From a virus (taxonomy: Duplodnaviria; Heunggongvirae; Uroviricota; Caudoviricetes), in the IMG/VR virus record IMGVR_UViG_2698536379_000012: DNA of 8,242 nt, one strand, 5' to 3'. Both the position numbers and the translations under genes were made by a program. This document shows positions 1 to 333 of this stretch, piece by piece. Position 1 is the stretch's first letter. Each line of letters begins with the position of its first letter. Under the pieces are notes generated by a model. The model made no database searches. It was not told the DNA's origin and worked only from the letters and a program-made list of their open reading frames with translations.

Positions 1-333
1 TTGTATCAAAAGCCGGTGAGCGTTATCGCCGGGCTGTGGCGCTTATTGTTCGCCAGCAGCGGCTGAAATTAAGCCTGTCCGGAAGGCTGGCGATAAAGAT
101 TATTGCCGAGCCACCGGATAAGCGCCGCCGTGACCTGGACAATATTCTGAAAGCGCCGCCGTGACCTGGACAATATTCTGAAAGCGCCGCTGGATGCGCT
201 GACGCATGCGGGGTTGCTAATGGACGATGAGCAGTTTGATGAAATCAATATCGTTCGTGCTCAGCCAGTATCTGGTGGACGTCTGGGGGTGAAGATTTAC
301 CCCATAATGCTTGAAGGGCAGGTCAAAAAATGA
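1..333 (+). pseudogene. rusA: rusA-like Holliday-junction resolvase gene, 5'-partial at the window edge and frameshifted by a 31-bp tandem duplication
   Basis: Frame 3 from nt 3 reads ...LSGRLAIKIIAEPPDKRRRDLDNILKAPP and stops at TGA 162-164. The rest of the protein (LDALTHAGLLMDDEQFDEINIVRAQPVSGGRLGVKIYPIMLEGQVKK) continues in frame 1 to TGA 331-333. The DRRRRDLDN and LxDDxQ stretches match the RusA catalytic Asp region as I remember it. Removing one 31-bp copy restores a single frame. Confidence 0.7.
120..181. repeat. Perfect 31-bp tandem duplication (2 copies of aagcgccgccgtgacctggacaatattctga) inside rusA
   Basis: nt 120-150 and 151-181 are identical. The unit is bounded by the 9-mer AAGCGCCGC, which occurs three times (120-128, 151-159, 182-190), consistent with slipped-strand or microhomology duplication. 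31 is not a multiple of 3. Confidence 0.95.

Follow-up and report, generated by a model that had tools for sequence, protein, structure and literature searches.

Does the rusA gene at the edge of a lambdoid prophage contig carry a genuine loss-of-function mutation, or was the short tandem duplication that breaks its reading frame introduced when the contig was assembled? The window, by which we mean the whole stretch of 8,242 bp that was analysed, is the complete draft contig CYAE01000058.1 (GCA_001277435.1). At its 5' end the first 73 nt of rusA are missing, and the duplication begins 120 nt from that end. Among complete genomes the top matches were the O55:H7 strains RM12579, DEC5D and TB182A (99.9% identity), with O157:H7 strains coming next, and the corresponding region of O157:H7 Sakai is annotated as prophage Sp6. 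The source is an Sp6-like lambdoid prophage of an E. coli strain of the O55:H7 lineage. Global alignment of the window with RM12579 revealed five differences in 8.2 kb:

In rusA: 31-bp insertion
2670, 7450 and 8143: SNPs
3411/3412: 4-bp deletion

Two identical 31-bp units, AAGCGCCGCCGTGACCTGGACAATATTCTGA, are read directly at 120-150 and 151-181, after which the first 9 bases of the unit, AAGCGCCGC, occur again at 182-190, and the sequence across the repeat thus runs ...CCACCGGAT, then AAGCGCCGCCGTGACCTGGACAATATTCTGA, AAGCGCCGCCGTGACCTGGACAATATTCTGA once more and finally AAGCGCCGC TGGATG... Tandem Repeats Finder reported the array 120-190 with period 31, 2.3 copies, 100% matches, 0 indels and a score of 142, that is, as the perfect head-to-tail copies of a slippage-type duplication. 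Both approaches confirmed at these coordinates the perfect 31-bp tandem duplication that the initial annotation had described at 120-181. Repeat identity ends between T119 and A150 on the left and between C129/C160 and T191 on the right, which leaves a self-match of 40 nt with a chance expectation of about 7e-19 in 8.2 kb. The array is the sole long tandem repeat of the window, the runner-up being an 11-bp doublet at 6164-6185. The features of the repeat and of the gene that carries it are the following:

1-333, plus strand: rusA, RusA-family Holliday junction resolvase gene (PF05866; match to 1Q8R/2H8C), first 73 nt cut by the contig end, disrupted by the duplication
120-150, plus strand: copy 1 of the 31-bp unit AAGCGCCGCCGTGACCTGGACAATATTCTGA, encoding K65-K75, with the codons of D69 at 132-134 and of D71 at 138-140
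151-181, plus strand: copy 2 of the unit, extra with respect to all relatives and absent from RM12579 and from the sister contig L005 (the alignment gap could be placed on copy 1 just as well)
182-190, plus strand: third 9-mer AAGCGCCGC, the microhomology, with its other occurrences at 120-128 and 151-159
162-164, plus strand: premature TGA stop that results from the +1 frame shift; the encoded polypeptide comprises 77 native residues and a final Pro and has the C-terminus ...DLDNILKAPP
165-333, plus strand: remainder of rusA, out of frame, in an uninterrupted frame 1 that includes codon 226-228 for D90, the counterpart of RusA D91, and ends in the native stop, 331-333

The identity of the gene was established on a one-copy reconstruction, for which one unit was deleted and the missing N-terminus borrowed from the closest complete genome, that of RM12579. 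The reconstructed gene is identical to the 375-nt CDS of WP_001217410.1 (124 aa, E. coli O55:H7 RM12579). Its 124-aa product matched the Pfam RusA profile PF05866 with 59.9 bits (cut-off 22.8, E 4.8e-16) and the solved E. coli RusA structures 1Q8R and 2H8C with E 2e-20, residues 6-113 aligning on 7-114. Profile and solved structure alike place the gene in the RusA family and bear out its initial naming as rusA. The truncated product itself scored 35.6 bits against PF05866, over profile positions 3-88 of 124.

The extra 31 bases amount to ten codons and one base and therefore shift the frame of rusA. Translation from the contig end gives VSKAGERYRRAVALIVRQQRLKLSLSGRLAIKIIAEPPDKRRRDLDNILKAPP (ending ...PPDKRRRDLDNILKAPP) up to TGA 162-164, after which frame 1 reads KRRRDLDNILKAPLDALTHAGLLMDDEQFDEINIVRAQPVSGGRLGVKIYPIMLEGQVKK and stays open to TGA 331-333. 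A frame shift ending the resolvase at this TGA, with the rest of the gene intact in another frame, is what had been predicted at the outset; the position of the stop stands, but the motif said to precede it, DRRRRDLDN, is actually spelt DKRRRDLDN.

Alignment to 1Q8R pairs D69, D71, K75 and D90 of the reconstructed protein with D70, D72, K76 and D91 of RusA. In the latter enzyme D70, D72 and D91 constitute the cation-binding site, and mutagenesis cited in the same study found the three aspartates to be essential for catalysis and assigned Lys76 a part in it (PMC1636454). The 78-residue product retains D69, D71 and K75, and hence the DLD pair, and is devoid of D90 and of the C-terminal 47 residues. 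The loss of a downstream catalytic Asp, foreseen in the initial annotation, was thus verified on the structure-based alignment, and with the D90 codon (226-228) out of frame the three catalytic, metal-binding aspartates are not found together in one polypeptide. Lacking the D91 equivalent and the C-terminal 47 residues, the truncated RusA would therefore be unable to form the metal-binding active site; it is expected to be without activity, as judged from the RusA structure and the mutagenesis literature. As written in the contig, rusA is predicted to be a pseudogene of the RusA family and not a functional member of it.

We then asked in which direction the change had occurred. All 40 of the 40 best matches listed for window 1-420 span 389 bases in two pieces, corresponding to one copy of the unit. 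Three queries of 56-73 nt were searched against 5,426 complete E. coli genomes with stringent E-value limits. The 73-mer of the one-copy allele, which served as the positive control, had matches at 1,614 places, distributed over 1,101 of the 5,426 genomes, and with the same settings the two-copy junction had no match in this set, nor did the allele carrying the reciprocal 31-bp deletion, which was searched as a test for a slippage hotspot. The two-copy junction was likewise absent from 50,697 phage records, in which the single match was the one-copy allele in two overlapping pieces, and from IMG/VR, the GTDB species representatives (one genome per bacterial species) and the JGI metagenome contigs. 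At the protein level, the exact 78-aa truncated product was not found among about 15 billion predicted proteins, a collection in which the intact 124-aa RusA is present on at least 1,000 contigs.

A further comparison is provided by the sister draft contigs, which share with the window the lineage markers SNP 2670, the GGAC deletion at 3411/3412 and SNP 7450 wherever these are covered. One of them, L005 (CYCH01000084.1), covers rusA and is 100% identical to window 16-5393 except that it carries a single copy of the unit. The duplication is therefore derived and private to one draft contig. RM12579, L005 and the 1,614 places in complete genomes are all in the one-copy state and two copies were seen in none. 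The derived nature of the duplication, as first proposed, is borne out by all of this: removal of one copy yields the exact RM12579 gene, every relative examined is single-copy, and intact homologues with the extra sequence in a single frame were encountered in none of the collections searched. Besides the duplication, the only other difference private to the contig is SNP 8143 (G here, A in RM12579), which lies 99 nt from the 3' contig end, in a part that no sister contig reaches, and may represent a true SNP, a base taken from a paralogue or an error at the contig end.

What could have generated the second copy is indicated by the one-copy allele. In RM12579 and L005 the 9-mer AAGCGCCGC is present twice, exactly 31 bp apart, and the duplicated unit spans the first 9-mer to the base preceding the second, so that in the ancestral allele the unit is bordered at either end by a short direct repeat. 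The earlier suggestion of replication slippage, made from the 9-mer at both ends of the unit, gains support from the fact that the pair predates the duplication. In a slipped-strand mispairing event, the nascent strand would have copied the second 9-mer, re-paired with the first and recopied 31 bases; the extra bases would then have shifted the frame of rusA, with translation ending at TGA 162-164. If the endpoints were unrelated to the 9-mer, a flanking match of 9 nt would be expected with a probability of about 4e-6, and the duplicating process therefore used the microhomology, which favours a polymerase event in vivo. On balance we lean, with limited confidence, towards the duplication being a recent private loss-of-function mutation of the prophage rusA by replication slippage.

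It is to be noted that this 9-mer pair is ordinary. Seven pairs of 9-mers no more than 60 bp apart occur in the window, against about 1.3 in shuffled sequence, and nothing sets this one apart from the others. No hairpin or other structure favouring slippage was detected beyond shuffled controls on either strand (z about 0.7). The paralogous rusA found in the sister contig L002 carries degenerate 9-mers, AAGCGCCGT and AAGCACCAC, and the slippage substrate is therefore specific to the window-type allele. Recombination between rusA paralogues was considered as a source and rejected, both copies being of the window-type allele and the paralogue differing from it at several positions of the unit.

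An assembly artefact, already mentioned as a possibility in the initial annotation, is a caveat that the present data reinforce, the allele being confined to one draft contig and located 120 nt from its end. The isolate would in that case truly be one-copy, and the second copy would stem from a wrong-register join or from the gap closure of overlapping terminal and main contigs, a scenario that we regard as quite possible. Among all the collections searched the two-copy allele is unique to this contig, and the 120-190 nt that separate the duplication from the end of a short-read draft contig would make a real mutation a coincidence, as positions that near to an end make up just a few percent of the contig. 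Furthermore, the contig breaks off within rusA, a prophage gene that occurs in several copies (between 1 and 8 places per genome, with a median of 1), and the sister contig L005 breaks no more than 15 nt away, its first base corresponding to window 16, which points to a breakpoint zone induced by repeats. According to the GapFiller paper, contig edges "often contain misassemblies", and in the Sanger pipeline (Page et al. 2016) the scaffolding and gap-filling steps, SSPACE and GapFiller, are greedy and prone to false joins. At the other extremity, the 3' end of the window extends 176-192 nt past the sister contigs L002 and L004, which is compatible with added end pieces, and SNP 8143, the other private difference, also lies less than 100 nt from a contig end.

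The exact boundaries of the duplication are harder to reconcile with such an origin, since an unmerged contig overlap would be bounded precisely by a 9-nt direct repeat by chance in only about 4e-6 of cases. For the repeat itself to have served as the joining point, some merge step would have had to tolerate an overlap of 9 nt, whereas extension by GapFiller uses 30-mers (the default k-mer of 30 in the GapFiller paper); the Sanger pipeline runs Velvet with k at 66-90% of read length (Page et al. 2016). In the one-copy sequence no k-mer of about 30 nt or longer occurs twice, as a loop in a de Bruijn graph would require, and the five sister contigs, albeit a small sample, display no similar duplication. 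The period of 31 was also considered as a k-mer signature and set aside as suggestive only, since repeats in the one-copy sequence are too short to create a loop in a k=31 graph and the GapFiller default is 30. Should the duplication prove to be an artefact, the consequence would be a practical one: frameshifts within 100-200 nt of draft contig ends need read support before being scored as pseudogenes.

Anything other than a real mutation or an artefact we hold to have only a slight chance. Such readings, like the possible side effect of a real mutation, involve the gene that follows rusA:

330-1151, plus strand: antiterminator Q gene (PF03589, E 4.7e-50; 'antitermination protein' in relatives), whose ATG overlaps the native rusA stop

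The start of Q and the native stop of rusA share the sequence ATGA at 330-333, and the premature rusA stop lies 166 nt upstream of the Q start. Such an overlap suggests that the late-gene antiterminator is translationally coupled to the resolvase. With a real duplication, it is possible that this coupling would be lost and Q translated more weakly; the comparative data give no hint of selection for a polar effect on Q. The Q protein, of 273 aa, contains two PF03589 stretches and a sub-threshold match to a DnaJ-type CXXCXGXG zinc finger.

The duplication might on these grounds be a functional or reversible element, acting as a one/two-copy contingency switch that toggles RusA and Q translation or having its frame restored by ribosomal frameshifting, which we consider very improbable. 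Short tandem duplications can revert by the same slippage that creates them, and the present one would be able to collapse back in this way; moreover, the overlap at 330-333 offers a route by which rusA translation could affect Q. A true contingency locus, however, would be expected to vary in length across strains, and no length polymorphism exists at the 1,614 one-copy places, the two-copy allele and the reciprocal 31-bp deletion being both absent. Nor is a slippery site or a stimulatory structure evident, and a two-copy repeat of a 31-bp unit is atypical as a phase-variation tract. More improbable again is the fuller version in which the 31-bp repeat is a reversible prophage switch toggling RusA, with uncoupling at ATGA tuning Q, late-gene expression and inducibility.

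Whether a real mutation or an artefact, the lesion affects a well-known type of gene. RusA of E. coli K-12, encoded by the DLP12 prophage (1Q8R, 2H8C/2H8E), belongs to the same PF05866 family and is likewise prophage-borne, and its RRRDLDN motif, Lys76 and third Asp all have conserved equivalents in the one-copy reconstruction. Functional members of the family are dimeric enzymes able to cleave Holliday junctions and to suppress the phenotypes of ruv mutants. K-12 rusA is intact, whereas the window allele is frameshifted after residue 77 and loses the D91 equivalent together with the C-terminal 47 residues. The K-12 gene is poorly expressed. The rusA genes of Sp6 (O157:H7 Sakai) and of O55:H7 RM12579 (WP_001217410.1) are 100% identical in nucleotide sequence to window 1-420 once one 31-mer is removed and have the same rusA-Q overlap and downstream late region, but theirs are single-unit genes with an intact 124-aa frame. 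The lesion itself resembles the slipped-strand duplications and deletions known, for example, from the classic lacI CTGG hotspot in having perfect head-to-tail copies whose ends coincide with a pre-existing short direct repeat. It differs from them in that it is one event, private to this contig, at a 9-mer pair with nothing unusual about it; as no other genome shows gain or loss at the site, the locus does not qualify as a recurrent hotspot. RusA itself, the residues it uses for catalysis, its presence in lambdoid prophages and the creation of tandem duplications through microhomology are all textbook matter, and the finding is ordinary either way.

If the duplication is indeed a slippage mutation, the loss of rusA was probably neutral, because the gene belongs to the nin-type region, which is dispensable, and the prophage was already decaying in the lineage. 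Decay is apparent at other loci of the prophage, among them an esterase gene:

2230-3447 and 3426-4163: split esterase ORFs, with the junction at 3411/3412 (region 3405-3415)

At this junction RM12579 reads CAGGACGGACGGCTG and the window CAGGACGGCTG, one GGAC unit having been lost ((GGAC)2 to (GGAC)1). The loss splits a 645-aa SASA-family carbohydrate esterase (DUF1737, SASA and DUF6645), which we take to be NanS-p-like, into ORFs of 405 and 245 aa, and constitutes a second slippage-type example within the window. Since the GGAC deletion is shared by at least six draft assemblies, which belong to two accession series, it is, unlike the rusA duplication, a genuine lineage marker. Two sister strains have in addition an IS1 insertion, absent from the window, at a site corresponding to window 5393/5394 and inside a DUF1327/YdfR-family gene (5096-5440). 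Sister contigs L005 (5348-5462) and L007 (3264-3314) leave the window sequence at the same base to enter an IS1 end, for which thousands of plasmids carry IS1 copies of 100% identity. Downstream of Q, a TerB-family gene is a pseudogene with an internal stop in RM12579 (4358-4720 of the RM12579 sequence L001), and in the remnant at window 1389-1751 only a 48-aa ORF was called (1605-1751).

A real duplication in rusA would accordingly add one more case of prophage gene decay by replication slippage, in the form of a private pseudogene of use at most as a strain marker; its one mildly interesting aspect would be that the loss of translational coupling might exert a polar effect on the antiterminator Q.

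Several further observations were made on this prophage. Upstream of the region covered by the window, the complete genome of RM12579 contains a perfect 107-bp tandem duplication (L001 809-1022), which covers two identical 105-nt CDSs annotated as 'hypothetical protein' (WP_001278454.1 twice); a finished genome thus provides an example of a perfect tandem duplication in this prophage. The perfect 11-bp tandem doublet at 6164-6185, two copies of GCGCATCTCAC, is located in the spacer between the lysozyme and antirepressor-like genes and is conserved in RM12579 and in the sister contigs; it is therefore ancestral and not a new lesion.

On the plus strand downstream of Q, consensus matches identified terminator-like hairpins with T-runs at 1185-1201 and 1232-1249 (within 1185-1259), and a further match of this kind, a strong terminator-like hairpin, lies at 2117-2135 (region 2117-2145) just before the esterase gene. 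These hairpins are plausibly candidate targets of Q-dependent antitermination. Finally, the lysis cassette accommodates at 6295-7010 an antirepressor-like gene (P22_AR_N/ORF11CD3 domains, 189 aa) and a 48-aa ORF, flanked by the lysozyme (endolysin) gene at 5491-6024 and an Rz-like (spanin) gene at 7018-7485, and the same arrangement is annotated in RM12579.
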